Source: Psilocybe cubensis (lineage: Eukaryota). From it: a DNA stretch of 64,000 bases. This document shows, piece by piece, positions 1-37,174 of the stretch (position 1 is the stretch's first letter; every line of letters begins with the position of its first letter). Location of the stretch: contig CM039003.1 in assembly GCA_017499595.2 (NCBI GenBank), forward strand, positions 682,001-746,000, in the 5' to 3' direction. The notes beneath the pieces were generated by a model. That model saw nothing but the letters and a program-made list of their open reading frames with translations. It did not search any database and was not told the origin of the DNA. The translations under genes and the position numbers were made by a program.

Positions 1-9
1 GACGACTTT

Positions 10-2637
10 GTGGTTCCCTTTGCTGGTCATTCTATTTACACGGTCTTTGACTTATATTGGGGATATGACGCACGCAAAATCCATCCTATAAGCCGAGATC
101 TTACCACATTCCAGTCGCCTATTGGACCTCTTCGACTTACTTCAATGCCTATGGGATATACGAATGCAGTAGCGGAATTTCAAGCCTGTACCACCTTTAT
201 CCTTCGTGACGAGATCCCTCACGTAGCCAATGTCTTTATCGACGATGTTCCTATCAAAGGCCCTCCAACACAGTACTTAGACAAGGACGGCAATCCAGAA
301 ACACTTCCAGAAAATCCAGGAATACAACGATTTGTCTGGGAACACGCTCAAGATGTTCATCGAGTTATGCACCGCATGGGATGTGCTGGTGCTACATTTT
401 CTGGACCAAAGACTCAGCTCGCTCAGCCTAAAGTTCTTATCCTTGGACAGTTATGCACTCCGGATGGACGACTACCCAATCAGAGCAAGGTACAAAAAGT
501 CACTGATTGGCCACGACCAAAGTCTGTGCACGACATCCGATCCTTTCTAGGTCTATGCGGAACAATGCGTGTTTGGATCAGAAATTACTCAGCCCTTGTC
601 CGACCACTCACAGAACTCTATCGTAAGGACGAACCCTTTGTCTGGACCCAACAACGAGAAGACTCTTTCCAAACTCTCAAAGAAATCATTTCCAATCCTC
701 CTGTTCTCACTTCTATTGACTATTCATCCGATCGCCCAGTTATTCTTGCCGTGGACACTTCTCACATTGCTATTGGTATCATTCTCTATCAACTTGACAA
801 AGGAGGCATCCGACGACCTGTCCGCTATGGTTCTATCTCACTTAATCCACGAGAAGCACGATACAGTCAGCCCAAGCTTGAGTTATATGGTCTTTTCCGT
901 GCTCTTCGAGAATTCCGCCTCTATCTTATTGGAGTCAAGAACCTCTACGTTGAAGTCGATGCCAAGTATATCAAAGGCATGCTCAATCAGCCTGACTTGC
1001 AGCCTAGTGCTAGTATGAATCGATGGATACAAGGCATTCTTCTCTTTGACTTCAAGCTCATCCATGTAAAGGCCGGTAATCATCGTGGACCTGATGGACT
1101 TTCAAGGCAACAACCAACTTCTGAAGAGTTAGAAGAACCTCAAGAAGACGATGACTGGCTCGACAATATTGCTCTTCTTAATACGGTCAAATTTTTCCCT
1201 ACTTTTCTTTTTACTCCCTCTTCTATGCCATCGTATGACTCTATCTCGCTTCCTTCTTTTATTGCTTCTTCTTCTTCTCAAGAACGGACACTTCGACAAA
1301 TTCTTCAATTTCTTACAGACCAAACTATACCCCCTTTTCCCAATTTGCAGTCCCGACGACGATTCCTTGCTCGCGCTACTCAGTACTATCTCAAAGATGA
1401 TCAACTCTATCGACGACGACAAGGAAGACCTCCACTCTTGGTTATTCTAGATCCAGACAAGCGACGTCTCATTCTTACTCAAGCTCATGAAGAATTCGGA
1501 CATCGAGGAATATATGGTGTGTTTGGAGTTATTCGCATTCGGTTTTTCTGGCCATTTCTTTTTCAGGATATCAAGCATCATCTCGCTACTTGCCATGAAT
1601 GTCAGATCAGATCCACCAAGAAAAGCGAAGTTCCTATCACTATCACAGCTCCCCCAACTATCTTCACTATCATCAATGTCGACGTCATGTACATGCCCAA
1701 ATCTGGACGCTTCCGATACGTAGTCCTAGCCCGAGACGACTTATCACGTGCACCTGAAGGACGTGCCCTCAAGTCTTTACGTTCCGAAGAGCTGGCTACT
1801 TTCTTTTGGGAAGAAGTCATATGCCGATATGGTGCTATTGCTATTGTACGCACGGACAATGGAGTAGAAGTCTCTGGCGCTTTCAGTCTTTTGATGGAAA
1901 AGTACGGCATTCCTCAAGTTCGCATTTCTCCTTACAACTCTAAAGCCAATGGATCTATTGAACGTGGTCACATTGACTTCCGTGAATCCATTCTCAAAGC
2001 TTGCGGTGACCAACCTCTAGACTGGCCACAGTATGTTCATCACACACTCTTCTCTGACAAATGCATCACTCGACGCTCTACTGGACATTCCCCTTTCTAC
2101 GTCATGCATGGTGTTCATCCTGTTCTTCCATTTGATCTCCTTGAAGCCACATTTCTAGTTGATGGATTCCGACAAGGAATGAGTTCCGAAGATCTTCTAG
2201 CTCTCCGTGTTCGACAACTCATGAAACGAGATGAAGACTTAGCCAACATAGCCAACGTTCTGAAACAATCACGACTTCAATCCAAAGCTACTTTTGAACA
2301 ACGATTTGCTCGACGTCTTCGACAAAAAAGCTTCAAGTTTGGTGATCTAGTCCTCGTTAGGAACAGTCAAGTTGAGAAGGAGATGAATCGCAAGCACAAG
2401 CCACGATATCTTGGACCTTACGAAGTTGTACGACAGACACGAGGAGGATCATATGTGCTTAGAGAACTTAATGGTACGCAACTGGCTCAAGGTGTAGCTG
2501 CTTTCCGACTTCTTCGCTATTTTCCACGAGACGGTTCAGTCATTTCTCGACCTCAGCTAGACCGGATGATCAGAGAACTTGGACACGAGAGTGAGGAAGA
2601 TGAAGACACATGGAGCGACGATATGGACGATTTCTAA
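10..2637 (+). CDS. pol: Gypsy Pol, 5'-truncated (RT, RNase H, integrase)
   Basis: FDLYWGY, MPMGYTNA and FIDD RT motifs; RNase H YSQPKLELYG; integrase H..H..CHEC zinc finger, TDNG, ERG and GPY motifs; 875 open codons. Confidence 0.95.
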   Translation: MVPFAGHSIYTVFDLYWGYDARKIHPISRDLTTFQSPIGPLRLTSMPMGYTNAVAEFQACTTFILRDEIPHVANVFIDDVPIKGPPTQYLDKDGNPETLPENPGIQRFVWEHAQDVHRVMHRMGCAGATFSGPKTQLAQPKVLILGQLCTPDGRLPNQSKVQKVTDWPRPKSVHDIRSFLGLCGTMRVWIRNYSALVRPLTELYRKDEPFVWTQQREDSFQTLKEIISNPPVLTSIDYSSDRPVILAVDTSHIAIGIILYQLDKGGIRRPVRYGSISLNPREARYSQPKLELYGLFRALREFRLYLIGVKNLYVEVDAKYIKGMLNQPDLQPSASMNRWIQGILLFDFKLIHVKAGNHRGPDGLSRQQPTSEELEEPQEDDDWLDNIALLNTVKFFPTFLFTPSSMPSYDSISLPSFIASSSSQERTLRQILQFLTDQTIPPFPNLQSRRRFLARATQYYLKDDQLYRRRQGRPPLLVILDPDKRRLILTQAHEEFGHRGIYGVFGVIRIRFFWPFLFQDIKHHLATCHECQIRSTKKSEVPITITAPPTIFTIINVDVMYMPKSGRFRYVVLARDDLSRAPEGRALKSLRSEELATFFWEEVICRYGAIAIVRTDNGVEVSGAFSLLMEKYGIPQVRISPYNSKANGSIERGHIDFRESILKACGDQPLDWPQYVHHTLFSDKCITRRSTGHSPFYVMHGVHPVLPFDLLEATFLVDGFRQGMSSEDLLALRVRQLMKRDEDLANIANVLKQSRLQSKATFEQRFARRLRQKSFKFGDLVLVRNSQVEKEMNRKHKPRYLGPYEVVRQTRGGSYVLRELNGTQLAQGVAAFRLLRYFPRDGSVISRPQLDRMIRELGHESEEDEDTWSDDMDDF

Positions 2638-2695
2638 TCTATCCCCCCCTTCCTTCCGCAACCGGGGACGGTTGATTTCTCAAGTTTGGGACGGA

Positions 2696-4321
2696 TATCA
2701 TACCCCAATCCTGATTGGAGATGAGATGTTCATTTTGGATCTACACACGACGCCCTCAACCCAAGCAGTCATTCTTTCCATAAGTCATCCACACATCTTA
2801 TCTTATCAACACTTGTCACATGGGAGCCACGTTATTCCGGATCATGTCACTTCGTTGGATCATCAAGGCTATGCGACGGATCAGTCAACCATCAAACTGC
2901 ACAGCTTTCTACACTGCCTTGCACAGCCGGACTGTCAACTCTATTTTTATCAATTCAATGGTCTTACTCAGCGTCAGGCTGCGGATTACTCATTCCAACT
3001 TATTTTTGGTTTGTCTTACTCATCCTTTTGTGTTTATTTATATCTTTTCTATTGTCTGTTGCGCTTTTATTATCTTTGTCTTACCAATCTTCTATGCTTT
3101 CTGACTCATCCTTGCTTCTTTTATCTAATCTGTATTACCATTCACCTTCGTCATACACTTCTTTCTTACTCATCCTATTCATTTCTTGGTCGATATTGAC
3201 ATGTCTTATTGTTCTTGCTTATTGTTACACTTGCGTAGCCTCATTCTTGACACTTTGTACAGTATATGACTCGGTTTTCAGTAGCTCAGATTGGTATTTC
3301 GTTCACGTAGCTTTTAGTATAAAAGCTGTAGTAGAATTACACGAAATGACAGGAAAGTTACACCCAGTCCCCACTTTCTTCAAAGCAAGTCAATTTTCAT
3401 CCAAGTCAAGTCAATTTCAAGTCAATCCACATCGATTCATTTCAATTCCAAGCTCAAGTTCAAGCCAAGTCCAAACCCAAGTCCAATTCAGTCATCAGTT
3501 CCACCCTCCATCGAGACCAAGTTTACTTCCATTCATCCAAAGTCATCTTGCTTTCCATTAAGAGAGGATTTCATCCGAGACCAGTCATCCTCCTCATCCA
3601 ACGCCTCTTCTTCTCAGCATTGAATATCCAACTTCTATCCAGACCTCCAGTACTTCCCTACTTCCTCTCCTCCATTCAATCCGTCACCGCTCCTACTCCT
3701 TCTACACCTTCCAACCATCGCCGTTAGGAGTGTATTCAAGACATCCTTTCCCTCCGTCAACTCATCTGGAGCGATTTTATTCGAGATAGACTTAGTCTTT
3801 CATCCTCGATTCAGTCAATACTCCTGCGACGTATAGCTTCATTCCAAGCTTCAGAAAGATTGTCAATTTAAAGACACTTTCCCCATTCTCCAAGATTCAG
3901 CCCGTTAACGACATTCCAACCCCTAGTCATCTTCTCATCTCCCCTCGGAACGTTCCCCACTCACTTCAGACAACCCCTCTAAGATTCACATTTATTGATT
4001 TCTCATACGCATTCTACGCATCTTCTTCACGCTTTCCATATACACCCGCCATCCAATTCCACGGTTCCATCCCATTTTCGGAAGGCTTATTTACTATCGT
4101 ACCCAGACGACCCGGTTATCCTCTTCTTACTATTTCGCTTTTGTTACCCTTCACAATCCACACCATCCTAATCTACTTAAATCCTAGGCAGCGTCCTCCC
4201 TTAAGAAACTTAGGAGAAGGTTTTGTCCTATCTAGTCTGGACCACTCTTTCCCTGGGGTTTGTGTTTGTTGGATTACATATAGTTTATAACCAATCACAA
4301 ACTTCGATCTTCAATGTTTCA
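2696..4321 (+). repeat. 3' LTR of Gypsy A (~1.6 kb)
   Basis: Starts TATCATA (probably decayed TGTCA) after the purine tract and ends TTTCA; TATAAAA at 3318-3324; 2870-4321 matches 46416-47423 plus 52801-53253. The 5' boundary is inferred. Confidence 0.75.
3796..4290 (+). CDS. Conserved ORF inside the Gypsy A LTR, unknown product (possibly extends to ATG 3346 across decayed stops)
   Basis: 3883-4290 aligns without gaps to 52815-53222; hand count ~44 synonymous vs ~12 nonsynonymous codon differences in 135 codons; same TAA. Confidence 0.7.
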   Translation, partial: SFILDSVNTPATYSFIPSFRKIVNLKTLSPFSKIQPVNDIPTPSHLLISPRNVPHSLQTTPLRFTFIDFSYAFYASSSRFPYTPAIQFHGSIPFSEGLFTIVPRRPGYPLLTISLLLPFTIHTILIYLNPRQRPPLRNLGEGFVLSSLDHSFPGVCVCWITYSL

Positions 4322-5892
4322 GGAAAACCTTTGGATATGTATTATGCTATAGTGGACATAGGAAAGAATTACTATATTTGAAAGGTACGAGCGACATAAG
4401 CTCCATTAAAAATTCATATTAACACTACTATATTCCTACTAATTATATAGACTTGCGGCTTTGGTGCAAAATACTATTTTAGCATCTGGTACCTGTTTCT
4501 AGCTTTCTTTATCTTACCTTGTTATCATTCAGTCCCATACAATGCCTTTCTACAATACTATGTTTTATGTTTGATGAAATATAATAGATTTAACTCTTCA
4601 TTTGCATGATATAATACAAATGTACCAGAAATAAATACACAAACAGGTGAGCCACCACACAAGTTTTCATGTCAATCTCTTCTGTGGCTAGAATAGTAAA
4701 AATATATATTACAGTGCAAGGTTGAACAATCTTGGGAAGCATTGGAATCTGATGGATGACCATGTATTCTGCACAACAATTGTATTGGCTGACAATTCTA
4801 TATGATATTCCATAAATTTTAAGTGAACTTAATGCCATTTAGTGTAATGGAAATCAGGCAAAATTGTTCTATATCATGTTGACCATGTAGACATTCTAAG
4901 GCTCATGCATTCCATTGTAACTAAATCACATTAGACAGTTTATTTATAACGTACATTACCTAAGATTTAATAATAAGGATATTATGTGAGATACAGTGGA
5001 TTTACTCCCACTACCTAATTAAGAGATTAGCGTGCTATACGTGTGATTTAGCCTGGCAAATCATAGCATACATGACGTGCCATTTAGCACTAAATGGAGC
5101 CACCGGGTGGCCTGCAGAATCCGCGTGTGGGGTTGCATGGGAAAAACACAGGCCGCAAATGAACTGAACGGGTCCATCTATATCCCATGTATTATAAGCA
5201 GATGGATCCACTTTGACCCGTGTTGTGCTGTCAGACGGCCCCATTTGACCCGTGTCTTCCCAGAGAAGGAGGATTATTTATGGGGTATTGCAAATCAATG
5301 AGCACAAGGGCTCCAAAAATAATTTATTCAGTTCTACCAGTGTACAAATGCGTTTCCAAACTCAATTCAATCCCTGTCAGCCCAGTATCAATTTCCTCCA
5401 GCGCATTATAAGTCAGAATCTCTGACTGCAGCTAATGCAGGCAGAGGTTCTTAAACGCTGTGACCTTGCTATCATAACTATTGTTGCCAAGAGAACTTTT
5501 GATTATATGGTTGTACGTGGCCCATAGCTGCTGCTTGGTATAATTCTAAAACAGTTGTCAGTATCTAGTGCTTGGTAATATCTAAGTATATACATATAGA
5601 AAAGGAGGGTTAAAATACGCCGTCTGATCTGTCACATCCTTGAACTCAATGTCAGACTGGGTGGGAGGCGAACCGGGGTAGCCGCCCATGGGATCAAACC
5701 TGCCGTAGGTTCAAAAATAAGAATTTTAAAGGAGCAGGTGGCATGCTTCAGGCAGCGGAGAATAGTGACCTTGCTTTTTCTCAGAAGAAATAGCTGGATG
5801 AGAGTCCATAATGATTTTGTCGACGACGGATGTGTATGAAACATTTGGTGTATGTGCTGCCATAGATGGCAGAGCCACATCATCTCAGATGA

Positions 5893-6545: not shown

Positions 6546-8926
6546 ATAGCATCATCATCATCCATCACTGCCACCTTTGCCCAATGCCTTGCTGACTGGA
6601 AAAAAATGTTCACAGAGTGCTACCGCAGCGGTGAAAGCACGTTCAACGCTCAGTTAGAGCAGCTCTACAGGGACTTGGTGAGTAATAAATATCCCTTGAT
6701 CATGACTTGCTCAACAAAAAAAAAATTCCAATAGGTTTTATTGTGTCATGAGTATATCAGGGATACCGCCTGCTTCCGGCTCATCGACTACATTGCGAGT
6801 CCCATTGTCTACTCTTACAAAGTCATCCAGGGCAAGGGCAGCAAGAACATCCACAGGTTTGAGGTCGACTGGGCAACACTCAAACATCAAGTTGCCAACT
6901 TTAAGGCCTACTAGGAAGGCCAGGAGGCAGAGAAGAAGAAAAAGGAGAAGAAAGAGCATGAGGAAGAGGAGAGGCAGAGGGTGGAGGAGAGAAGGAAGAG
7001 GGAGGAGAGAAAGAAGAGGGAGGAGAGGAAGAAGAGAGAGAAGGAAAGGCAAAGGGTGGAGAAAAGGAGAAAGAGGGAAGAAGAAAAGCAGAGGGTGGAG
7101 GAAAGGAGGAAGAGGGAGGAGAGGAAGAAGAAGGAGGAAAGAAAGAGGAAGGAGGAGGAAGAGGAGAGGCAGAAGGAGCAAGAGAGGCAGAGGGAGCAGG
7201 ACAAGGACAAGGACAAGGACAAGGAGACGGACAAGGAGACGGAGAAAAGACGGGCCGAGAAAGGCAAGGGCAAGGCCATTGAACCCCCAGTAGAATGCGG
7301 ACCCGTAACAGATGGCCATAAAGACAAGGGCAAACAGAAAGCGGCAGACTCCGTAAAATCCAGCAATGTGGCTCCAGTGGAGTACAGGAGACCACAAACA
7401 AAGACGGGGGAAATACTTCCCCACATGACTCCCTTCAACATGCCCGGCCATCCCATATACAAGGCAAAGTTGGCAAGGTTGGCGCAGTCCAAGTGCAAAA
7501 GCAAGGCTACCATAGGAAGCCACATGGACAATGACGCCAATGCCGACAACGACGACAAAGGCAATGATAACAAAGGGGTTCCGCCTACCACCTCCACCTG
7601 GAAGATGCTCACCCGGTCCGCAAAGAAGGACACCGACCAGGACGCTATCTCCCCCTATCAGGAAGGCGTGGTCAAGATCTGACAAAGCACGCCAGGTGCT
7701 GGAGAGAATGGTGAATATGGTGGAAAGGTGCAAGGGATGCACCAAATTTAAGGTGCCATGTCATGTCAAGGGGGAGATAGGCACTGAGCCTCTCGTCCCT
7801 ATAAAGCACCAATCTTGCGAGTTTTGCAAGTCTTGCAAGATCCACTGCAGCTTCTATCCAGGACGCCACACCTTCACGGGGCAATTCAGCCTGACAATGC
7901 CACTGGGAAGTTATGGGGAGGTGTTGAAGTTGGAGCAGGAAGAGGATGTTCCGGCGAAGGAGAAGGCCGGGGAAGGGTCATTCCCCGAGGATGTGGGAGA
8001 GCTGCTTGTGCAGCTCTTTGAGCAACAAGGCTGACTGATGAACGGATGGATGGCCTTTCTGCGTCCATGATGGCGATGAACGCACGGATTGCAACGTTTG
8101 CCAAAACAAACTTGGCGGTGAAGAAGAGGATGAAGACTGTCGAGGACGGCTTCCAAGAGCTGAAGGCCAAGTGGACCATGGCAAAAGAACAAGTGGCAGG
8201 AAACACTTCACTTTCCGTCACGATGTTCAACAACATCAAGCAGGGGATCCAGGACGTTCAATACATGGTCGGAATTTTGCTAGAGCAGGATAAACAAAGG
8301 GATCCCGCCCCCAAATAGGCAGCAGGACCCTCCAAGACGAAGGTCAAACACAAATAGGGTCCGTCACAGAGCCGTGAACCAACCTCTGCGCCTCAATCCT
8401 CAAGCCCACCACTACCGCCAGCACCCATCCTGCCTTCCCCTCCTTCTCCACCACCAGCAGCCCTACTCCCTTCCCCATCTCCACCACCACTAGCGCCGCT
8501 CCTCCCTTCCCCGCCCCCACCTCTACCTGCACCCGTCCTCCCTGCCGCGCCTGCGCCCCAAACTGCGCTTTTCTTGCCCGGATCAACTCCAACATTGCTT
8601 TTGCCCCCCTAGCTGGCCAACCCTTACTTCCACTGGTACTGTCTATCCTTTCCCTGTCTCCACCACCCCCTCTCCCAGCTCCACATCCTTGAAGTTTGAC
8701 GTCAAAGACCGCACCGTTGTCAAAGGCCGCGCCATTGTCCAAGGGCGGCCCATCTTCAAAGGGCGGCCCATCGTCAAAGGCGGGCCCATCATCAAAGGCT
8801 CAGCCATCTGGAGATGGCAACTCGTCAGAGTTGTCTGATCCATCGGACAGCAACGAGGTCGAGATTGTGGAGGAAGACGTGGAGATTGTGGCATCCACGC
8901 TGCCTGTGTCAAATATGGCCACATAA
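6546..8926 (+). pseudogene. Spliced gene relic: charged coiled coil, KGKGKA motif, Zn2Cys6-like cluster, coiled coil, Pro/Ser-rich tail; probably TE-associated
   Basis: Probable start decayed to ATA (6546); GT-AG intron 6678-6734; E/K/R repeat ~6920-7260; Cx2Cx6Cx18Cx2Cx6C at 7729-7848; in-frame stops and frameshifts; 18-bp repeats at 8702-8808. Confidence 0.65.
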
Positions 8927-10275: not shown

Positions 10276-10510
10276 TAACAGAAATAGAGACTGAGGGAAG
10301 GCGGTGATTGATCAAGAGATAGTGATAAAAAGACCGAGCATGAGTGGGAAGAATGTGACTGATGTGACATTAGGGGCTGTCCGCATCTTTACTGATGCAA
10401 TTGCACCAGATGTTAGGGAGAGCGATTGTGCAACGGTTTTCATCAGAATTTTTGACTCCGCTTTCATTCTCCGCCGGAGCTCTCCTGAACATCTGGAGCC
10501 GAGATTACCA

Positions 10511-10774
10511 TTCATCAAGCCTTTGTCACAGAGGACATACAGCGACGTCGCCGCGCTTCGGAGTTGCCTGCACTCGCCACCGCGTTCCAGGCCGCTCCAG
10601 CCCCTTCTGCATCCAAGCCCAAGTGCGCATTTTGTGATATGACCAATCATGCAATGGACAAGTGTCACAAGTTCATTGCTGCGCAAAAGGATGCAAAGGA
10701 GCGTGTCAAAGCGGCTCGCAAAGGCAATAGAGCGCACAAGGCCTCAGAGGCATTCAGTGAGGAAAAAGAGTCCA
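10511..10774 (+). repeat. Isolated copy of Copia B gag zinc-knuckle segment
   Basis: ~264 bp nearly identical to 11880-12143. Confidence 0.9.
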
Positions 10775-11126
10775 CCAAGCACAGTACTGGCACTGACACT
10801 TTCCAAACACCTCATGCAAAAAGGGGGGCAGCTTAGAGATGATTGTGCATGAACATCACAGCCAACTCCATCAAGCACTGTCAGTTCAGTAATTATTCAA
10901 ACATTGAAATTTTTGGAAAGTAGGGAAATTAGATTTTTCAATTTCTATCAGGCTGTTTTATACTACTGGTGATGCAGGGCATCAAACTTGTTTCTAAGGT
11001 TTCTGGTCTCACCAAAATTGTCAGAGATCTATTTCATAGCTAAATCATTTGCCATCAGATTGTTGATTATAGTCTTTGTCACAGTGGCAGTGATTTTTGG
11101 ATTTGCAAAGATTGATAAGAGTTCTG

Positions 11127-14100
11127 TAGGTCGCCGAGTAGCTCACACTGCCCCGAGCTCGCCTGCTTCAACAGGTTATGGGCCCCGCGCTCTAAGCGCT
11201 CCAATTCCGTGTGTTGCAAACCAAGTTGCTTTCTGCATAGTTTTCACAAAACGGTCATTTTAGTTACTACCAACACTCGTATCCATCCGCTTACGTGTTC
11301 CTTCGCAATTCGCAATAATGACTTCTGATCCCCAAATCACTCCATTGAACTCAACCAACTACAACACCTGGGCAGGCCAGATGACCGCCTATCTCCAGTC
11401 TAAAGGGATATGGCGCATTGTCAGCGGTGCTAGAGCACAGCCAACGCTCTCAGACAAGCCCACTGCTCAGGAGGAAGCTTTGCTTGAAACCTATTTTGAG
11501 CAGAGAGACAAAGCATGTGGTTTGATCTATCTCAGTTTGGAGAATGATCAGAGGGTTCATGTGGAAGCCATCAAGGATGATCCTATCAAGATGTGGGATG
11601 CCCTCGCTGCTGTACATCAGCAAAAGCGCCCTGGCAACCGCTTTAATGCATATGATGATCTGTTCTCAATCCGAAAGGAGGAAGGTGAAAACCTTCAAAC
11701 CCTGATCAATAGAGTTGAGCAAGCCATGTTGCTAATTCAGCAGCTTCGCCCTAAGGGGTTTGATCTGGCTAAGCTTGATGAAGAGCTTGCTTCGCTTGCT
11801 CTGGTCAGGGCACTCCCAGAAGAGTACAGTTCATTTGCATCCTCACTTCTCCTTTTGGACAAGTTGAACAAGGCTACAATTCATCAAGCCTTTGTTACAG
11901 AGGACATACAGCGACGTTGCCGCGCTTTGGAGTTGCCTGCACTCGCCACCACGTTCCAGACCGCTCCAGCCCCTTCTGCATCCAAGCCCAAGTGCGCATT
12001 TTGTAATATGACCAATCATGCAATGGACAAGTGTCACAATTTCATTGCTACGCAAAAGGATGCAAAGGAGCGTGTCAAAGCGGCTCGCAAAGGCAATAGA
12101 GCGCACAAGGCCTCAGAGGCATCCAGTGAGGAAAAAGAGTCCAAGGACATGGAATTTGCTGGAAATGCAAGTGCTCTTAATACCGATGTTCCCTCTTCCA
12201 TTTCACCCCAAACTAATGACGATTGGATTGCAGACACAGGGGCGACTTCTCATATGACGCCCCATCGCAATTGGGTTAGAAATTACACCCCCCTTCGCAT
12301 TCCAATCCGATTAGCAGATGAACGAGTTATTTATTCTGCAGGGGTGGGCACTGTGTTCTTTGAACCAGTTGTAAATGGAATAAAGTCAAGAGGCGTCGAG
12401 TTAACTAGAGTTTTACATGTACCAGATCTCCGAAACAATCTACTGTCTGTTCTATACCTCACAAAGCACAAAGGCTTCAAAATCACCATTGATGCTAATC
12501 TGATGGAGTTTTATCGCAAAGGAGCTTGTCTCTTCTCTGCAGATGTTAGTACATCAAACTGCGCTTTATTGAACGGTTATACAGTTCCTATTTCGGAATC
12601 TGCCTTCATTTCCTCCAATTCCACTCTACCCCTTAATATCAGTCTCTGGCATCGTCGGTTTGCTCATCATAGCTACACTGACATCCAGAAGATGATTAGA
12701 GAGGGTATGGTCACCGGACTCAAGCTGAATTCACAGCAACAGCCTGACCCCATTTGTGAACCTTGCCTTGCAGGCAAGATGCATTCCAACCCATTTCCTT
12801 CTTCACCCAGCATGTCAGATGTTCCGCTTGCGCTTATCTTCTCAGATCTGAAAGGTCCTATCTCGCCCCCTACTCCTGAAGCCTATTGCTACTGGATAAC
12901 CTTTATTGATGACCATACAAAGAGTAGAGCTGCTGTGCTTCTTAAGCGCAAAAGCGATGCATTCAGTGCGTTTCAAACGTACAAAGCATGGGCTGAGAAC
13001 AAATTAGGCTTTAAGATCAAAGCGCTGCAGGATGACAAAGCTGGTGAATACATGTCAAATGCTTTCATCAAATTCACTGACCAGTGTGGCATTGAGCGTC
13101 GTCATACAACGCGAAATCGCCCACAACAGAACGGAGTTGCAGAGCGTGCAAATCGCACCATGGCAGAACATGTTACTTCCATGCTCAATGAGGCTCGTGT
13201 TCCACCTTCGTTTTGGGGTCACTGTGTTGCAGCATACATGCATGTATGGAATCGTGTTCCTACAGCTCCTCTACCGGACAAGACTCCGTATAAAAGCTGG
13301 AACAAGCGCAAACCTGATGTTAGTCATTTGAGGGTTTGGGGTTGCCTTGCATATGTTTATGTTCAGGGAGATAAGCGCAAATCGTTGCAGCCTCATATGG
13401 AAAAGTGTATCTTTGTTGGGTATCCTACTGGGTACAAGGGCTGGGAGTTTTACAACCCAGTCACCAAAAGGTTCATTGCCAAAGTTTGACCTTTTTTCCA
13501 CTTCTTCTGCAATTGCACCACCTTCTAATTCAGGTGGGCACTCTACTGGCTTCAATTTTGATGATGATGAGGATGACTCTACTCCAAGTCCTGTCATTGA
13601 GCCAGAGGTGCCTGAACAGCCAGCTGAACAGCCACAGCCTGAGGCCGTTCCTGCACCTCCTCCTAAGCCTGCACATCGTCAGCGTGCTCCAGTTGATCCT
13701 GCAATATTGAGACGCACTACTTGCGTTCCTACGCAGCCTGGTAAATGGTACAAGGTCACACATGATTCTGAACCACCTGAAGCCAATGATCCTGGATTTG
13801 AAGAGGTGGAATTTGCTGGGCTTGTTTCAAGCGCAGATCTGCGCACATTCAAACAGGCAATGAAAGCGCCTGATGCACACATGTGGGAAGAGGCTGCTAA
13901 TACAGAATTCAATCTGCTGCAGCACAATCAAACTTGGGAGCGAGTTGAGCTCTCTCCGGGTCAAAAAGCAATTGGCTGTGGTTGGGTCTTTAAAATCAAG
14001 CAAAATGCAGATGGCAGTATAGAGCGCTACAAGGCTCATATTGTTGCCAAGGGCTACAGTCAGTGCCCTGGCATTGATTACCATGAGGTCTTTGCTCCTA

Positions 14101-15745
14101 CTTTCTGCCCTGCTACTTTCCGCTTGATTGTGGCTCTGGCCGCCATTGGAGACTTGAAGTTGCACTCTGTTGATATTACAGCTGCTTTCACTAAAGGTGA
14201 CCTAGACGAGGAGATTTACATGTTACGACCTGAAGGATTTCACCAAGGTGGTCCTAACATGGTTTTGAAGCTCAAAAAGTCACTCTATGGTCATAAGCAG
14301 TCTGCACGTCAATGGAACCTCAAGTTGCATGAGGCATTGTCAGATATGGGGTTCAAACGTATAGAATCAGATCGCTCTGTCTACATCTATTCAGATGGAG
14401 ATGTGAAGATTATTGTTCCCATTTACATTGATGACATTACCTTTGCCTCCAAATCGGACGCTGCCATAGATAGAGCTGTTAAGCAGCTAGCTGCGCGTTT
14501 TGAACTCCGTGATCTGGGTCCTACACAGTATTTACTTGGTGTTGCCATTGAGCAAGATATGGCTGCTAAAACCATTTCCTTGCATCAGCGTCAGTATATC
14601 CTTGATATGCTTGATACATATGGCATGACTGATTCTAATCCGGTCAAAACACCTATGGCTGTGGGCACTGTTCTGTCCAAGGCAGATGGACCTCAGAATG
14701 GAGATGAGGTGGAATTTATGCGAAATGTTCCCTACCTCAATGCAGTTGGCTCCTTGCAGTATCTAGCCACCATAACCTGTCCTGACATTGCTTTTACTGT
14801 GTCCTATCAAGTTGACTTATTCTGGCGCTGTGGGCCATGATAACTTTGTCACCTACACTGATGCTGCACATGGTGATTGTGTAGATACTGGACGCTCTAC
14901 AAGTGGTTATTTGACCGTTCTAGCTGGAGGTGCTATTGGCTGGGCAAGCAAACTCCAAACTGTTGTAACTCTGTCTACTACTGAGGCAGAGTACATTGCT
15001 GCGGCGGAGGCAGCCAAGGAAATTGTGTGGATGCGCAATATCCTTGAGGAGTTTGGCTACACAGTCACTGAGTCCTCTGTGCTGCATATGGACAACCAGT
15101 CATCTATCAGTGTTTCCAAGAATCCAGAGCACCATGGACGGATGAAGCACCTTGATTTGCGCTATTATTGGCTTAGGGATGCTGTTAGTGTTGGAAAGAT
15201 TTCTCCTTCTTATATTTCTACTAATCAGCAAGCTGCTGATATTCTTACCAAACCCCTCTCACCTCCTAAAGTGGACTTTTGTAGAGATAAAATGGGTCTC
15301 AAACTTTAATCTTTCTTTCTCTGTTTTGCTTTATTTTTCTTTGTTCTGGAGACTTGTGAGAACTACATATTAAAATTGCTCTCTATGTCTCTCTCACTTT
15401 GCTATCTTATCAGATTAGATTACTTTCTTCTTATCTTCATTTGCTCTCCAGACCATTCTAGACACATGATATTTATCAGTCCATAGACTGGTCTGGACCG
15501 GACCAGAGTAGACCTAGGTAGACCAGAGTACTTGAGTCTACACAGTATATAGTCACTCTAGTTTACATCCTGAAGTCCCCAGTTACTCACTTCGGACTTC
15601 AGGTTAGTTTGTTAGCACTTTGCTCAATTCACCCAGTTACTCACTTCGGACTTCAGACGCTTCGTGCTCGCTTATCCCTGCGCCCTACGTTTTATAACTA
15701 GGTCGCCGAGTAGCTCACACTGCCCCGAGCTCGCCTGCTTCAACA
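11127..15745 (+). mobile_element. Ty1/Copia LTR retrotransposon B, deleted derivative
   Basis: gag-PR-IN-RT-RNaseH order; PBS GGTTATGGGCCCCGC at 11174; 47-bp 5' LTR remnant (11127-11173) identical to the end of the 3' LTR (~15368-15745, ends TTCAACA); no TSD visible. Confidence 0.95.
11318..15309 (+). pseudogene. Copia gag-pol split into three frames by two internal deletions
   Basis: CAFC..H..C knuckle; WIADTGATSH protease; LWHRRFAH/CEPC and QQNGVAER integrase; YIDD RT; YTDA..STTEAEY RNase H; frame breaks at ~13485 and ~14810. Confidence 0.9.
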
Positions 15746-17950: not shown

Positions 17951-18751
17951 ATGTTATACATCTATAAGGGAAGTTTGCCCACTCTTTTTGGCCAGCCCAA
18001 CCAACTGGGCTACTGGGCTATTATGGAAGTTGTTTATTAATAGGCGGGATCATGTAAACAACAGTAAAAATCACTTTTAATATTGGGCAGGCCTCCATAG
18101 TGTAGCTTAACTCATTGTTTAGGACATTCTTAAGCACCAAAAAAATAGTAAATGGGCAAATATATATTTGAAATCTATATCAGGCATTTGCCTGCCTTTT
18201 CAAAGGTGGAAAGAGATGGATGCAAGAGCTAGACTTTGGATGACAATCTCTGATATTTTTTTTTGCTAATAATAGAACTTTGCTCATCAAATGATGCACA
18301 CTATTGATTGCATTAAATCTGATGTCCAATATTGATTGACATCAAAATTGATATCAGGAACTTGGTCTAATTATATCAGAATTAGCTATAATATCAGAAT
18401 CAATTAGGGTTTCCCTGCCTTTGGTCCCTGAGTCAATAAACAATACTCATTCTATGCTACTTTTATGCATTGCTAGCAATAGATTGGATGCTTTTGGGGG
18501 CATTTCTGGACTATTTCTCTTGGTCTTTTTTGGTAGATCTATATGGAAAACCCTTTAGTATAAGAGAAAACACTCACATGCTCAATAGAATCATAGATCT
18601 TTGGTATATTAAAATGTTGTAGGGTATACATACAAACTCTAGTAAGACAAAATGATGGAAGAATGAATGAAAAAAAGAAAATGAGCTTGTATCAATTGAG
18701 TATGAAGTGACGTCAAACAAAATATAAGTAAACAGAGGTGTCCATGTTTAT

Positions 18752-19350
18752 ACTTTCCTCTCTCCATAAAAAGAAAAAAAAAAAGATAAAAAATATGAAG
18801 CAGGGAGCCAAGAAATAGTCAAGAGCGGAGTACTACAATGCTTAGCATAGATGCCTCAAAACCCAATGGGAAAAAGCTACTGGCTAGCCACAGAGAGAAG
18901 TAAGAAACTACATAAAAAAATGCAGTTTGCTACAGCCGGTTCCTTTTAACCAACCAGATATTGAGTACTTGTGTATCATTGAGATGTGATCCAGGCAGCC
19001 ACCAAATTTTATTATCATCTTTGTTGAGCCATCTAATGAGATACTGATACCCTTGGCCGCATTTCTTTTTATCAATAATATTGCAAGTCTTTATTGATAA
19101 CAGTTGGTGGGTTAAGTTTTACTCTTGATGGGAATAGTGTGTTGTCATTTGAAATGTGAGATTTCATAAATGAAGTGTGGAACACCCGACATATTGACTT
19201 TGTTGCGTTTAGCAAGTCAAGCATAACTGTGGAAGCATTCTCATTGCATGCCAGGACAATATATGGTCCATTGAAACATGACATGAACTTTGCAACACAA
19301 TATTTTCTACTAGCCTTATATTTTTTGTGCCTATTTTTGGTAGATAGCAT
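18752..19350 (-). mobile_element. Decayed chromoviral Gypsy 3' fragment (integrase GPY/F, chromodomain, PPT)
   Basis: AKFMSCFNGPY..VFHTS, then YQYLIRW..WWLPGSHL; purine tract GGAGAGAGGAAAG near 18753-18765 on the minus strand. Confidence 0.8.
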
Positions 19351-19620
19351 TACTTTCTATCCTACAAAAAAAGGGAAAATTAGAATACAACATGAATTAG
19401 CACTAGTAGCTGCCATTTAAATCAATCATAACGTGCTGAGTGCCTACATGGCAATATGCATTTTTACCACATTTTAATGATATGAAATTATGGATTATTG
19501 CTGTAAGTTATAGCTAAATGATATATCTTTCAATATTGTAACACAGCTAAGTAATTGCAAATCATTAAAAGGCTTGTAATCTACAGTATTTTGTCAATAA
19601 GATATCATAAAGTTGCTTAT

Positions 19621-19985
19621 AAGCTACCACATTTTGGAATTGGATTATTAAGATCATTGTAAATTACAAAAGAATAGTAAATATTGTATGATATTATTAT
19701 TTATAAGCTACCACACCCTAGAGCAAAATCATTAGAGTTACTATAGTCTACATAAATGCAGTAAATGTTAGATCATATCATTTCTTGTAGATTACCATAT
19801 GCTGGAATTAGATCATTCAGATCATTGTAAATTACAGAAGAATAGTAAATATTATATGATATTATTGCTTGTAAGTTACCATACTCTGGAGCAAAATCAT
19901 TAGGGTCACTATAGTCTATAAAAATGCAACAAATGCTAGATTATATCATTCTTTGTAGATTACCATATGCTAGAATAAGATTATC
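19621..19985. repeat. Minisatellite: 84-bp monomers arranged as 168-bp dimers
   Basis: Unit starts at 19621, 19705, 19789, 19873 and 19957; alternate units are most alike. Confidence 0.85.
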
Positions 19986-20089
19986 CATTCTTTTTGATTA
20001 GATATAAGCATGTATCTTATTTGTGCTTGATCATTTGTGATATAATGCCATCAATTCAAGAATCCTAGCTAATTCTGGATCTTGCCATT

Positions 20090-23000
20090 AGCTCTATCAA
20101 AACTATTATTAAATAAACCTTCTGATCTTGGCCCCTAGGTCTATAAATAATGCTTATTCTATGCTACTTTTATGTATTGCTAGCAATGGATTGGGTACTT
20201 TTGGGGAGGCATTTCTGGACCATTTTCTTTGATATTCTTTGATAGACCTATAGTATTAAGGTGTCCCAATCTGAATCTAAAATCAGAATTAAAATATCTT
20301 TACTTATTATTGTGTAATTAAGTATACAATGTTTTTTTAGCCAAAAAGCGCACTTTGAATAGCACCCTCCAGGGGTTGGTATGCACCCTTTTAACTATGC
20401 CATTATTTTTTATTTATGTTAAACAGAGTACATGCTAAGTTTTAGCTAAATTTAAGCAGCAAAATTTATTGAACTAGGATATGCACCTTACCCCTCCTTG
20501 TACCTCTTGTATAAATGTCTTCCTGATCAGATAAATTCTGGCATAGCTAGGATTGAGTAAGTGCCTACTATACAAATTTTTAGATCCTATAATCCTGATC
20601 AAATTCCAAGATTGAAGCATGACACTCCCCATCCTCCCTACATTTTGTCTATTTTATTACAGAGCAGAATAGGCATTCACACTATTAACAAGCATGTAGA
20701 TCCATTACTAACAGTACATAAAGTTTAAAATTTATTCTTGAAAATCCTTTAGAGCAAGAAAACATACTGATTTAAGGAGGGTATGAGGAAAGGTATGGTA
20801 GGTTATTGATCAGGACATATCTCTACAAATACTTTGTCATAAATCATATTCTTGATGTCTATAGATATCTAGAAGTGCCTTCTGAATATCATTTTAAGTT
20901 GCAAAAAGATCCATTTGCTAGATGAGATGTTGCAGAGAGAATATCATTCTTTATCAAAATGCACAGTATTTTTGCATTTACTATATATAAACATTCAAAA
21001 TCAAGAAATATAAAAGCAGGATAGTATAGCCCTAAATCTTAGCTTTCCAGAACATTAAGGATATTGTGCATTGGACTAGTGGTTATTGAGATATAGAAAA
21101 AAAGGTGTTAAAGAATCCATCAGAGACCCAGATGGATATTAGCCTTTATTTATGCTTTATTTGTGGTCAATTACCTCTTTGGCTATTCTCCAAGATACAT
21201 TTTGACATATCTTAGCTCATACTTATTGGATTTCCATAATTCTATATACCACAGATAGGTGTCATTTGGGGCTATACAGCCGTATTATATTTGTATTTTT
21301 TGAATGTTGTCTTGTTCATTATATCTTGCTTTTTTGGTATTTTTGGACAATATTGCTTATTCTTCTGATACCATCTTGTGAAGTGTTTTGGCTGTTTAGC
21401 ATTCTGAATATAATATGTAGAGAATATTAATAGCTATCCGTAGATGTATGGTATGTGCATTTTGGTAAAGAATAAGCAGTAATATACTAATATTATAATG
21501 GAAATCCAATCACTACTTGTTTGCCTCACAACCAAGATGTTTTTCTTCATCCAGAATGTTTCAAAGATATATGTTATATTTTTGGTACTATATAGAGTAG
21601 CATTACATATCTATATGTGCTAGAAAAGGTTATTCTATCCCATACTAAAGCTAGAAATGGCTATTCTATCTCATAATAAAATATACAAATTCTGGAGAGG
21701 ATGGAGGTAGTACCCTTAAATCTTAGAGTTACACCAAGATTTTAGGCTTTAAAAATTGGCATAACAGATGCCTACTCAGCCCCAGCTGGGCCTAAATGTA
21801 TCTGATCAGGAAGACATTTATACAAAGAGTGCATATCCTAGTTTAATAGATTCTGCTGCTCCAATTTAGCTGAAACTTGACATGTACTCTATTTAATATA
21901 AATAAAAAATAATGGGACCACTCCTTAAACCACAACTACCACTTTTTGGAAACTTCCCACACACTAAAGAGTGCAGGGAATTGTCTGCTCAAGCTGCACA
22001 AATACAACACAACCATACAAATCTACATAAAATGTATACGCGGATACAAAACAAATAAACTGAGAAATATATATGCATCAATATATGCACTATATTTCTT
22101 ATAAAATTCCAGTACAGTGAAAAAAATTGCAATATTTGTACTTAGTATTGCACAATTAAGTGTATAATATTTTGGTCAAAAAGTAAATCTTAAATAGCAC
22201 TCTCCATATATTGATATGCATCTTTTTGACCATGCCATTATTTTTTATTTATATAGAAGTGAGTACATGCCAAGTTTAAACTTAATTGGAGCAGCAAAAC
22301 CTATTGAACTAGAATATGCACCCTCTCCTCCTCCTATCCCTTGTATAAATGCCTTCCTAATCAGATAAATTCAGGCACAGCTAGGATTGGTTAGGTGCCT
22401 ATTATACTAATTTTTAAAGCCTATAATCTTGTTTAAATTCCAAAATTGAAGAATCTACTCCCTATCTTTTCTAGATTTTGTGTATTTTATTATGGGTCAG
22501 AATATGCATTTCTTTTACATATTACTACTGTGGAACTCCTGAACACTAAAATATACTAAGCAAACAGCAATTGCTCCTTTTGTCTAATAAAAAATACTAT
22601 TAAAGATTACAAAAACAAATTTCACACTGATAATTATTGATCTAATCATCTTTCTCTATGCTGAAAGTTAGAACATGATTGCTTGGCATTTTGAAACCAG
22701 TAAAAATAGCTGATATGACAAAAAGAAGACATTTTAGTATGAATAAAATAATTATTATTAGTGCTTTAGCAATACATCAGATTTTCTTGGAAATTTAATA
22801 GTATTTTGTAGAGTATTGGACACACTGTTAGCCAGACAGCTATATTTAGTATGCTTTTAATACTATATATTTAGGTGTGCTTCAAATCAGTAAATTTAGG
22901 TGTACATAATATAGGTAATTTTACATGTATAAGAATACAATTAAGTAATAAAATTCAAGGGTGCTAAGAAAAACCGTAAGATAATGCTTTAAACAGGTAA

Positions 23001-24170
23001 AGCAAATAGAAGAGATGTGTTCTAGTATATGGCCCTTAAGAGCTCAAAGTTGTTGGGTAAATGTGAAACCCTGGTATACAATAAACAAGATCAATGTGGG
23101 TATTATTATAGATGTGGCTGTTTCAATAAAATATCCAATGGCTCTCAAACTTAAAAGGTCGGGATTTGACTTCTGTGTAGTGACTTAATAATAGGCACAA
23201 GAAGACTGGACAATGTTGTGTGGGCAGTTGGTCTTAAGCTTGCATAGGGCATAGATGGGGGAAGGCAGAATAAATATGGACTGAAGGCACTAAATTGTCG
23301 ACTATTTTTACAGCCGGTGCATATAGTATTAATCTGGGTGCACTAGTTGATAATATTAAGGCCATGAGTGCACTAGTGCCTACCACTTTTTATGATAAAA
23401 CAATAGCAAGTGTTAGCACACTCTTTTTATAACTGTTGATGGTTTTATCACAAAGCCAAATAATGAGAAGATTAGCCTATTTTTTATAAGTTTTGCTTTG
23501 CTTTTTCAGTCTTTTTCATTAGATAATACCATGCTTTCTCATTATCTTTAGGATACTTTTTTATTACCTTTTGATTAGATACCAGCCTGGTTATTTGATA
23601 AGATAGTTCTACATCAATATATCTTATTTATGCCTGGTCATTTCTAATGCCATGCCATCAAATTAGGAATACTGTGGGTACTTCTGGATCATGTCTATCA
23701 ATCTATCAAAGCTATTATTAAATAAACTTTTCTCTTCTTGGCCTCTGGATCTATAAATAGTGCTCATCCTATGCTACTTTTGTGCATTGCTGGCAATAGA
23801 TTGGGCACTTTTGGGGGCATTAGTAGATCTATATTTTAAAGGTGTCTAAATCCAAATCTAAAATTAGAATTGCAATATCTTTACTTGTTATTGTACAATT
23901 AAATGTATGATGTTTTGGTCAAAAAGTGCACCTTGAATAATATACTCCAGGGGTTAGTCTGGGCACCTTTAACTATGCCATTATTTTTTATTTATAATAA
24001 ACGGAGTACATGCTAAGTTTCAGCTCAATTGAAGCAGTGAAATCTATTGAACTAGCATATGTATCCTACCTCTCCTCCTACCCCTTGTATGAATATCTTC
24101 CTGATTTGATAAATTCAAGCCAAACTGAGATAATGTAGGTGCTTATTATACCAATTTTTAAAGCCCAAGA
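20090..24170. repeat. Dispersed AT-rich modules in both orientations
   Basis: Module B at ~20290-20680 (+), ~21655-21915 (-), ~22120-22510 (+) and ~23860-24170 (+). Module A (ATGCTACTTTT..GGGGGCATTTCTGG) at ~18445, ~20150, ~23760 and inverted at ~24180-24245. Confidence 0.8.
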
Positions 24171-24633
24171 TAGGAAACGGTCCAGAAATGCCCCCAAAAG
24201 TGCTCAATCCATTGCCAGCAATACACACAAGTAGTATAGGATGAGCGCTACTTATAGACCCAGGGGCCAAGGAGAGAAAAGTTTATTTAATAATAGCTTT
24301 GATAGATTGATAGACACGATCCAGAAGTACCCACAGTATTTCTGATTTGATGGCATGGCATCAGAAATGACCAGGCATAAATAAGATATATTGATGTAGA
24401 ACTATCTTATCAAATAACCAGGCTGGTATCTAATCAAAAGATAATAAAAAAATGCCCTAAAGATAATAAGAAAGCATGATATTATCTAATGAAAAAGACT
24501 TTGAAAAAGCAAAGCAAAACTTATAAAAAATAGGCTAATCTTCTCATTATTTGGCTTTGTGATAAAACCATCAATAGTTATAAAAAGAATGTGCTAACAC
24601 TTGTTATTGTTTTATGATAAAAATGGTAGGTAC
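23376..24633. repeat. Foldback: ~445-bp inverted arms with ~365-bp spacer
   Basis: 23376-23821 is the reverse complement of 24187-24633, roughly 90% identical by eye. Confidence 0.9.
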
Positions 24634-25117
24634 CACTCATGAGTGAGACATTTGCATCAAATCTCAACTATTTGATTTTGTTACCTCTTTTCCTCCTTCT
24701 CTTGAAGCACAAGAAAAACCTCAAAGGTCAATAAAATATATAACAAAAGTAAAAATCTTGATTGCATATAATACTTACCCTAGCTGTATGATTAGCATAC
24801 AAAACTTTGCTATCTAAGTATATTGATTCATTTGTCAATATTTACTAAATGCTCTACAAAAGCCTGTTTATTTGCACAGCTTCTATATACACATCTCTTC
24901 TCCAACAACCTTTACCTTCCTTACAGTCTTCCTCAAAACCACTCCTTCAACCTCTTTTATCATTTTAAATTTTCTCATTCAACTCATTATGCCCAATTTG
25001 AATATCCTTGTGGACAAAGCAATGCACTACTTTAATTTTGTGATGGTAGTCCCAATTTTTATTAGTGGAATGTTGTGCATCATCCTGATGTTCCTTGGCA
25101 ACATTATGGCCCCTATT

Positions 25118-25565
25118 TGTCAGGGTTTCTCCAGTTTCCCCTTTTTATCTTCACAGAATTATCTTATCCTTTCATTATCTTATCAATTATCTGATTAGAT
25201 AGTTTATTTCTTTCATCACAGCCTTTTTGCTCCACTTCTTTCTAGTAAATTCTATATGATTCCTAGTCTTACTCATCCTTTTTCTATATGATGTCACTTT
25301 TATTCTTTAACCTTCCTTTATGATGTAATGTAGGGAATATTCTAGAATAGCTGTAGAGTATAAATACTGGACTTGTAGGTAGCTGTAGCTTCAGCTTCAA
25401 TCTCTTAGGATATCCACTATTATTAGTGTGATCTCTTAGAATCATTGAGTCTCTCTCACTCTCTTATTCTCTCTTTGCTCTCTTACTCTCTCTCTGCTCT
25501 CTCTCTCTCCCTTGCTTGATCTTTGTTGGTGGCCTTGTCACACTAATTATAGTGTTGCCCTGACA
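25118..25565 (+). repeat. 5' LTR of Gypsy C
   Basis: TGTCAGGG..CCCTGACA; TATAAATA at 25359-25366; about 8 transitions relative to the 3' LTR. Confidence 0.97.
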
Positions 25566-25567
25566 GA

Positions 25568-25578
25568 AGATTGAAGCT
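25568..25578 (+). promoter_or_regulatory. Self-priming primer-binding site (Tf1/sushi type)
   Basis: AGATTGAAGCT is the exact reverse complement of AGCTTCAATCT at 25393-25403, 34 nt after the TATA start. Confidence 0.8.
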
Positions 25579-26058
25579 CTCTCAAGACAACTCCACCATC
25601 TCTCTTTCAACACCAAACTCTTCAACCTCTTCAACCTCTTCAACATCATCACCTCAACCTTCTTCCCCCACTTCCAACCCACCAACCTCTTCATCAACCT
25701 CTTCACCAATCTTCTTATCAACCTCTACATCTCCACCAATCTTCAACATCCTCCTCAAGACCTTTCCTCAAGACCTTTGGCTCATCATCTTTCCTACTCT
25801 CTGTTGTGTGCTGTGTGTGAACTTAGTAGATAGGAATACCAACTGTTGGGGCAGACACAGTCCTACTAGTGTTCTGTTTTTGGTGGTCTAGGAAATATCC
25901 AGTAACCCTGTGATGCTAGGTTTAGAGCCCTGAGTGGTGTGACAACTGGGTATCCAGTAGATAGATATTTTTTTTAGAATACTTAGTATAGTTTCAAGGG
26001 CACTTTTAGTAGATAGCTTCTCCCACACACACATCAGAGAGCCTACCTACCCCTACCC

Positions 26059-30824: not shown

Positions 30825-30889
30825 CTTGTTTTAGTGGGCCACCGCGGAGCGTGGTGTGACAAGTCTTTACAATTCAGTGTCATGCTTTG

Positions 30890-30972
30890 TAATAATATAA
30901 TATATATATAATATAATATATATATATAATATAATATATATATATAATATAATATAAATAATAAATATAATT
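30890..30972. repeat. TA-rich microsatellite inside the element end
   Basis: Run of TA/TAA units directly visible. Confidence 0.95.
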
Positions 30973-37095: not shown

Positions 37096-37174
37096 TCATC
37101 CGCAAGTCAAATTTACAAATTAAGACGAAAAGAATGAGGACAAGAACACAAGTTTATTTCAAACAAAAATTTGA

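Follow-up and report, generated by a model that had tools for sequence, protein, structure and literature searches.

Positions 682,001 to 746,000 of the Psilocybe cubensis contig CM039003.1 (assembly GCA_017499595.2, forward strand) form a eukaryotic stretch of 64,000 nucleotides that is rich in transposable elements; it is called the window here, and all positions are counted from its first letter. At its start lies the 3' part of a Ty3/Gypsy retrotransposon, and the long terminal repeat (LTR) of this element contains an open frame, segment B (Table 1), that is under strong purifying selection. Segment B is an integral part of the LTR and not an adjacent element. It is probably a genuine protein-coding sequence and a putative accessory segment of this multi-copy family.

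Selection was assessed by comparing B with its counterpart B' in a second LTR copy of the window. Both are 408 nt long, align with zero indels and end in a common TAA (4288-4290 and 53220-53222), as an initial annotation of this DNA had described. Substitutions are found at 62 of the 408 sites, with 12, 2 and 48 of them at codon positions 1, 2 and 3 (chi-square p = 5e-13), and they amount to 44 synonymous and 12 non-synonymous codon changes, exactly the numbers that the annotation had approximated by hand. By the Nei-Gojobori method, non-synonymous divergence (dN) was 0.041 and synonymous divergence (dS) 0.81, giving a dN/dS of 0.05, in line with the purifying selection proposed there. The two other sense frames reached 2.2 and 5.4, and the three antisense frames, with stops skipped, ranged from 0.14 to 6.3. 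When the same 62 substitutions were placed at random on sites of the same base, none of 100,000 placements had 48 or more third-position hits and none had 12 or fewer changed amino-acid codons; 16% of these runs were free of stops.

The third-position changes comprise 32 transitions and 16 transversions. That cytosine decay is insufficient to explain them, another claim of the annotation, was confirmed, as the signal persists without CpG-type transitions (11/0/39) and in transversions alone (5/0/16). Likewise, the antisense frame that shares the wobble positions of B does contain stops, six in copy 1 and eight in copy 2. Changes of C to T or G to A from copy 1 to copy 2 affected 29 of 176 C/G sites in the part assigned below to U3 and 28 of 199 in the leader, and within B they affected 2 of 61 such sites at position 1, 1 of 63 at position 2 and 20 of 56 at position 3. 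The same mutation pressure thus acted on B, and protein-altering changes were removed. Ten of the 12 replacements between the copies lie in the first 65 residues and two in the last 70.

Further copies were sought in reads, contigs and proteins. Among the 40 of 286 variable places in genomic reads that are listed, 10 fall in B, eight of them at third positions (all synonymous), two at second and none at first positions; the 25 in the rest of the LTR are split 10/5/10. These variants are only partly independent evidence, because six of the 10 places in B are also sites of difference between copies 1 and 2. Contigs of another organism (X11) match the LTR without gaps over 3890-4077 with 13 differences and over 4144-4313 with three, and the three differences listed within B are all synonymous third-position changes. 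A third copy is known from protein only: P0006, a hypothetical protein of Psilocybe cubensis with 438 amino acids, keeps the B frame with three replacements in 125 residues. Aligned to window 3425-4257, P0006 passes through the upstream LTR in another frame, continues into B and is then spliced at GTTTGT (4258) into an unrelated gene, so that it is probably a gene-finder chimera and an annotation artefact. A KH-like segment can be seen by eye in its downstream gene part. Within the window, tblastn and blastn recovered copies 1 and 2 alone, and no further pol of this family. A metagenome scan with peptide patterns gave 277 matches, none of which was confirmed, and an exact 26-nt pattern gave none; from a scan of viral contigs, none of 23 pattern matches was confirmed. 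Of two runs examined as possible RNA, X20 gave no match to the LTR, and X17, which is probably a DNA run, gave one contig of 208 nt (3378-3585).

Table 1. Features of the Ty3/Gypsy element, its LTR copies and the nested element (strand + or -; positions in the window)
Feature	Position	Strand	Remarks
Ty3/Gypsy pol, 3' part (reverse transcriptase, RNase H, integrase)	1-2637	+	runs in from the window edge; stop codon 2635-2637; frame of 878 residues
3' LTR of the Ty3/Gypsy element, 1618 bp	2696-4313	+	bounded by read depth step and loose read ends
Inferred U3	2696-3343	+	TATA-bearing TATAAAAG at 3318-3325
Block of 70 nt shared unchanged by both copies; candidate R and transcription start	3344-3413	+	inferred; zero differences
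C/T-rich non-coding leader	3414-3882	+	flat phase counts; indels at 3464, 3606-3608 and 3745; in-frame stops at 3559, 3787 and 3793
Putative coding segment B, 135 codons plus TAA	3883-4290	+	no ATG; frame open to 3796, in-frame homology from ~3883-3895
Post-stop LTR tail, 23 nt, ending ...TTCA	4291-4313	+	two differences between copies; loose ends at 4313
LTR copy 2, 5' part	46416-47423	+	matches 2870-3869, without the first ~174 nt; 89% identity over 1012 nt
LTR copy 2 overall	46416-47423 plus 52801-53245	+	LTR end near 53245; split by nested Copia
Putative coding segment B' of copy 2, 135 codons plus TAA	52815-53222	+	aligned with B
Ty1/Copia (repeat family D10)	47424-52800	-	197-nt LTRs, 97% alike; Pfam Retrotran_gag_2, Pol_BBD, rve, RVT_2

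The pol frame identifies the carrier element. Its Pfam matches are, in order, RT_RNaseH_2 (5.5e-21), RT_RNaseH (3.2e-18), Integrase_H2C2 (6.3e-13) and rve (3.2e-9); along the frame, a weak RVT_1 match covers residues 9-149, followed by RT_RNaseH_2 at 215-312, Integrase_H2C2 at 484-539 and rve at 557-647, which is the order of reverse transcriptase, RNase H and integrase found in Ty3/Gypsy elements. The borders of the LTR were taken from about 20,000 raw genomic reads (run X18) mapped with at least 80% likeness on window 2600-4400. Summed depth was ~410 at 2600-2660, rose to ~1400-1800 at 2722-4307 and fell to ~33 at 4369-4400, and loose read ends entering unlike sequence numbered 600 before 2696 and 995 (plus 140) behind 4313/4314. 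The depth step and the run-off points place the LTR at 2696-4313. Consensus agreement of the run-off reads was low (0.52 behind 4313), pointing to many different flanks. A long repeat with sharp ends common to many copies thus begins shortly behind pol and a purine-rich tract (GGGACGGA at 2688-2695, directly before the LTR start), as expected of an LTR. The 5' end given by read run-off is TA (TATCATACC) instead of the usual TG. By depth, the family counts tens of LTR copies, on a very rough estimate 50 LTRs and some twelve internal regions; these figures are coarse because the reference depth comes from bins at the edges of the mapped stretch. The second LTR, that is the 5' LTR, and the primer-binding site of this element lie beyond the window.

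Copy 2 is interrupted by a Ty1/Copia element on the opposite strand, whose insertion point coincides exactly with the border of the putative coding segment and whose gag, integrase and reverse transcriptase are broken up into six or more open pieces. The flanks of this Copia (47424-52800) show no clear target-site duplication. The flanks of copy 2 itself read ACATA and ACGTG, with three of five positions equal and both mismatches of the G/A type, which is a weak hint of a solo LTR with a target duplication that has decayed.

That B belongs to the LTR follows from several observations. Mean read depth (bin means) was ~1608 over 3881-4307 and ~1614 over 2783-3880, and by this equality B occurs in all or most members of the family. 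Had B been missing from the 5' LTRs of full-length copies, its depth should be about a quarter lower; the equal depth indirectly answers the refuting condition set by the annotation, a segment absent from 5' LTRs. The adjacency of LTR and B is common to three loci, namely copy 1, copy 2 and P0006. No run-off point near 3870-3883 occurs among the 11 of 355 loose-end rows listed, in which the strong ones are 2696 and 4313.

The position of B inside the LTR can be narrowed further by the way in which the two copies differ. At 2872-3343 the differences are almost only C to T and G to A in copy 2. From 3414 onward they go in both directions and include transversions, so that the substitution pattern shifts across 3344-3413. 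Transversions per site amount to 0.4% in the U3 part, 3.1% at 3412-3861 and 11.8% at third positions of B. The TATAAA at 3318 is the only one in the LTR, and B starts about 540-560 nt downstream of this TATA box and stops 23 nt before the LTR terminus, which puts it on the side of the repeat (R) and unique 5' (U5) regions. Since the copies combine a recent unique 3' region (U3), an identical block and an older, more diverged 3' part, B is assigned to U5. The suggested layout has R near 3344-3413 and B inside a U5 of about 900 nt. Such a mosaic could arise by minus-strand strong-stop transfer between two co-packaged RNAs, which would combine a recent U3 with an older R-U5 through a crossover in R.

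The initial annotation had drawn the coding interval as 3346-4290 and had placed an accessory frame in the R/U5 region of the LTR. The location inside the LTR (equal depth, end at 4313) and downstream of its only TATA box stands, and the coding interval holds for about 3883-4290; the extension back to ATG 3346 is not supported. As the annotation reported, the + frame from this ATG meets stops only at 3559, 3787 and 3793 before the final one at 4288, and TATAAA is found at 3318. However, codon periodicity is absent from the copy differences at 3414-3869, copy 2 carries indels of +1, -3 and -1 there, and upstream of ~3883-3890 neither copy 2 nor the X11 contig keeps the reading register of copy 1. 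In 73 of 1303 reads (~5.6%), one nucleotide is deleted at 3889. The lack of periodicity in 2872-3343 says little, because differences there look recent and one-directional. The coding signal is therefore confined to about 3883/3895-4290 as judged from the two copies.

The annotation had further raised the question whether the upstream stops are ancestral CGA or CAG codons or flank an intron. TAG 3787 is private to copy 1, with C in 99% of reads, whereas no variant is found among the places listed for 3559 (TAA, and TGA in copy 2) or 3793 (TAG in both copies). An intron joining ATG 3346 to B was rejected, judged on signals only: the GT sites read in 3349-3560 (GTTACA, GTCCCC, GTCAAT, GTCAAG, GTTCAA, GTCCAA, GTCATC, GTTCCA and GTTTAC) are unlike the fungal donor GTRNGT, none having a purine at +3 or G at +5. 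As a separate observation, pol (1-2637), a long open frame over U3 (2725-3561) and B are all in one reading frame, which could be chance, as stops are few in C/T-rich DNA, but would gain importance if pol were spliced to B.

Downstream of U3, the LTR is poor in ATG. Over the 967 nt of 3347-4313 the + strand has no ATG, compared with 9.1 expected by base shuffles (none of 5,000 was without ATG) and 3.8 expected by dinucleotide shuffles (1.1% had none). In U3 the count is normal, with nine seen and 9.6 expected. Copy 2 has five ATGs downstream of U3, every one of them at an ACG of copy 1. The composition of this leader fits that of a scanned 5' untranslated region. In a 5' LTR, B would belong to the long genomic RNA leader and precede both the primer-binding site and gag, and ribosomes scanning the ATG-free leader of an LTR-initiated transcript might translate it from a near-cognate codon. 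In-frame ATT codons with A at -3 are present at 3859 and 3895. If B is coding, a near-cognate (non-AUG) start such as ATT 3859 or 3895 is the favoured possibility, somewhat short of an even chance; a splice that attaches B as a 3' exon at AG 3894, behind the pyrimidine tract, is clearly less likely, and other routes of translation start account for the rest.

The product would have roughly 131-135 residues, be basic (isoelectric point 9.7) and be rich in Pro, Ser, Leu and Phe. Counted from 3796, the frame encodes 164 residues with 20 each of Leu, Pro and Ser, 15 each of Phe and Ile, and 18 charged residues. A single hydrophobic window of 19 residues, LLTISLLLPFTIHTILIYL, with a mean hydropathy of 2.0, lies between PRRPGYP and NPRQRPP. 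A HMMER search of 1.84 billion representative proteins gave P0006 as the only true match, in addition to three long repeat proteins, which were judged spurious because the matches consist of many short stretches in cadherin-like or tandem repeats. A word-index protein search found nothing at near lengths and P0006 only at longer lengths. At the RNA level, B has no Rfam match at E<=1, and its folding z-score is +0.75, so that by both measures it does not behave as a structured RNA. The lack of relatives together with a composition like that of the leader suggests a frame born de novo from the non-coding C/T-rich LTR and then selected. Developed into a full scenario, B would be a gene born in the element's own LTR, an AUG-less frame of 131-135 codons that is initiated at a non-AUG codon, was selected over a long time (dS about 0.8) across recombining subfamilies and yields a small, basic, membrane-anchored accessory factor; this scenario is a tentative one and rather unlikely to be right. 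Such a factor might act in particle assembly or trafficking, or in blunting host silencing.

Several results weigh against a coding role of B. As the annotation had pointed out for copy 1, the frame is without a start codon: there is no Met codon in 3796-4290, B is ATG-less in both copies, and no read variant among the places listed creates a start. A leader free of ATG implies scanning through to gag, which fits poorly with efficient translation of B. At the protein level, neither Pfam nor a PDB profile search gave a match at E<=1, a search of the Atlas returned low-score leads only (best feature score 0.78, recognition 856), and AlphaFold2 with a three-row alignment produced no confident fold (mean pLDDT, the predicted local distance difference test, 37.8). 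Codon-position base bias is absent from B (chi-square p = 0.57, in contrast to 3e-30 for pol), its base composition equals that of the leader, and its amino-acid make-up is that expected of any C/T-rich DNA. In addition, third positions of B are 35% divergent (raw), compared with 6-13% in the flanking non-coding LTR, and this excess needs an extra assumption, either the mosaic LTR outlined above or flanks that are constrained; the latter may also explain the shift of substitution pattern without strand transfer. Finally, the full DNA comparison consists of two copies, and the read variants are those of the listed fraction.

Among the rival explanations, the one given most weight makes B the 3'-terminal exon of a spliced subgenomic mRNA, with a very long R reaching through B and poly(A) in the last ~20 nt of the LTR. 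The AUG would be contributed from upstream, by a donor in the leader, gag or pol that is spliced to the AG at 3893-3894, and B would also stand at the 3' end of the genomic RNA. This would make the absence of ATG natural, and it agrees with in-frame homology that begins only at ~3883-3895, just downstream of frame-breaking indels in copy 2 and the X11 contig, as well as with the pyrimidine tract and AG before 3895 in both copies. The end of B has ACATATAG and TTTATAA, which we take to be yeast-like poly(A) motifs, and pol and B are in the same frame, which has a chance of one in three. However, R would need to be ~900 nt and U5 shorter than 23 nt, both extreme, no CTRAY-like branch site was seen in 3840-3890, C/T-rich sequence would contain a pyrimidine tract plus AG by chance, and the change of substitution pattern at 3344-3413 better fits a short R at that place. 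Overall, the spliced exon appears unlikely, yet it deserves more credit than the remaining explanations. A relic, meaning a frame that was selected during the divergence of the LTR lineages, later lost its start or its function and is drifting in every present copy, would also be without ATG and could accumulate non-synonymous variants such as 3890 C>T (Ser to Phe, ~57% of reads) and 4142 T or C (Leu or Ser) besides the 1-nt deletion at 3889. It is improbable, as the frame is open without indels in both DNA copies, P0006 and the X11 contigs, polymorphisms among tens of copies are mostly synonymous (eight of the 10 listed), and copy 2, with its heavy C to T change in U3, has almost none at positions 1 and 2 of B. 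Comparably improbable is a cis-acting regulatory upstream open reading frame (uORF), the nascent peptide of which would control ribosome flow to gag or the choice between packaging and translation, in the way of conserved-peptide uORFs such as the fungal arginine attenuator peptide. The position of B close to the LTR end, within what is presumably the 5' leader, and its unrecognisable fold would suit such a role, and so would the stronger conservation of the C-terminal half, expected if the part in the exit tunnel matters at termination. In contrast, 131-135 codons far exceed known peptide uORFs, an AUG is missing, and second codon positions are constrained in the N-terminal half too.

The two remaining explanations concern whether B belongs to the LTR and whether it was ever selected as a protein. 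The annotation had named a separate adjacent element as the finding that would overturn its proposal, and an origin of B outside the LTR, as a captured host-gene fragment or a neighbouring repeat, could draw on the Copia that stands exactly between the two parts in copy 2 without a clean target-site duplication, and on the different divergence levels of these parts. It is largely refuted and very improbable, considering that read depth over B is the same as over the rest of the LTR with strong run-off only at its two ends among the rows listed, that three independent loci have the same adjacency, and that 1.8 billion representatives contain no host protein resembling B apart from the chimeric P0006. 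Even less can be said for an absence of coding, with the periodicity being a mutational or chance artefact or the selected frame lying antisense. The missing codon-position bias and protein-level recognition of B, and the ease with which open frames are found in C/T-rich DNA, speak for it. At the level of the present data it was tested and rejected, since the 12/2/48 split and the neutral placements (none of 100,000 matching) exclude chance, the pattern is kept in non-CpG changes and in transversions, second positions are the most conserved, as for a sense frame, and the wobble-sharing antisense frame is broken by the stops counted above.

A coding segment B within the LTR can be compared with accessory genes of other retroelements. 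Additional open reading frames (aORFs) of plant Ty3/Gypsy and Ty1/Copia elements are placed, in a review (PMC7264820), in the internal region up- or downstream of gag-pol, mostly between pol and the 3' LTR. B resembles aORFs such as Ogre ORF1, the env-like frame of Athila and the antisense ORFs of Grande, RIRE2 and Retand in being an extra conserved frame in most copies of a family, and it shares with them purifying selection in one frame (dN/dS 0.05, with the controls given above). Many aORFs have no assigned function and no relatives outside their family, and B is likewise without relatives. Unlike aORFs, it lies wholly inside the LTR, occurs in a fungus and is without a start codon, no ATG being present in 3796-4290 or 3347-4313.

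A complete accessory frame inside an LTR is represented by sag of mouse mammary tumour virus (MMTV), a vertebrate retrovirus, which is located in U3 of a long LTR (>1.2 kb) and has its own AUG. As in B, the whole frame is contained in a long LTR and there is one hydrophobic, anchor-like stretch in the product. B differs from it in being AUG-less, in its place on the R-U5 side behind the TATA box instead of in U3 upstream of promoter elements, and in ending 23 nt before the LTR terminus; no sequence similarity to MMTV sag was found in the Pfam, HMMER and PDB searches. In murine leukaemia virus (MLV), glyco-Gag is a CUG-initiated leader frame downstream of the primer-binding site that forms an in-frame N-terminal extension of Gag. 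It is the nearest translation model, an AUG-less leader protein upstream of the gag AUG, although B stops inside the LTR and would be a separate product, and a non-AUG start for B is a guess. In Ty1 of yeast, Gag starts inside the 5' LTR, with only the first codons in the LTR and the frame running on into the element. Ty1 and B thus both have coding sequence in the R-U5 part of the LTR, and B differs by being closed by TAA within it. No report of a coding frame in R-U5 of a Ty3/Gypsy LTR was found in Creative Commons-licensed full texts of PubMed Central or in bioRxiv. B would therefore belong with the retroelement accessory genes, and its location, as a complete frame in the R-U5 of a Ty3/Gypsy LTR, appears to be new.

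LTRs are treated as purely regulatory and are masked by annotation pipelines, and if the coding role of B is true, accessory genes can hide there. In the full de novo scenario above, B would represent a third gene class for LTR retrotransposons at a place where coding is not expected. It would also be a clean case of de novo gene birth that combines a non-coding-like composition with a clear selection signature, and non-AUG translation or unusual splicing in retroelements of basidiomycetes might be studied with it. The mosaic pattern ascribed to strand transfer offers a sequence-only way to locate U3/R/U5 borders, and the fusion of LTR and neighbouring gene in P0006 is a probable annotation error worth flagging.

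Other repeats and genes were observed elsewhere in the window. An unrelated Gypsy element with a chromodomain integrase occupies 25118-39879 (+), with LTRs of ~450 nt that are 99% alike over the first 300 nt and 14.3 kb apart. Its pol has in-frame stops without frameshift, giving stop-to-stop frames at 27201-28055, 28056-28886, 28887-29570 and 29583-30911, which points to decay by point mutation, or to nested inserts, in an element of young appearance. A Ty1/Copia gag-pol is found at 11264-15309 (+), within 10506-15309, and a direct repeat of 269 nt, 96% alike, lies at 10506-10774 and 11875-12143, the second copy being inside the Copia gag frame. The stretch 18400-24650 is AT-rich (GC 31-35%) and contains several direct and inverted repeat families, among them 314-nt arms that are 94% complementary (23508-23821 and 24187-24500) and have the look of a foldback element or a miniature inverted-repeat transposable element. 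At 6926-7250, a G/A-rich tandem array of 13 overlapping units of 18-21 nt lies inside open frames on both strands and would encode a repeat rich in Glu, Lys and Arg; the + frames 6706-7293 and 6915-7682 had no Pfam match in a scan that covered + strand frames only. Two minus-strand frames next to 59021-60364 (-) had no Pfam match, and the frame 59021-60364 itself, in a region from 58 to 64 kb with a GC content of ~46-54%, matches Cep57/PPC89 centrosome domains.

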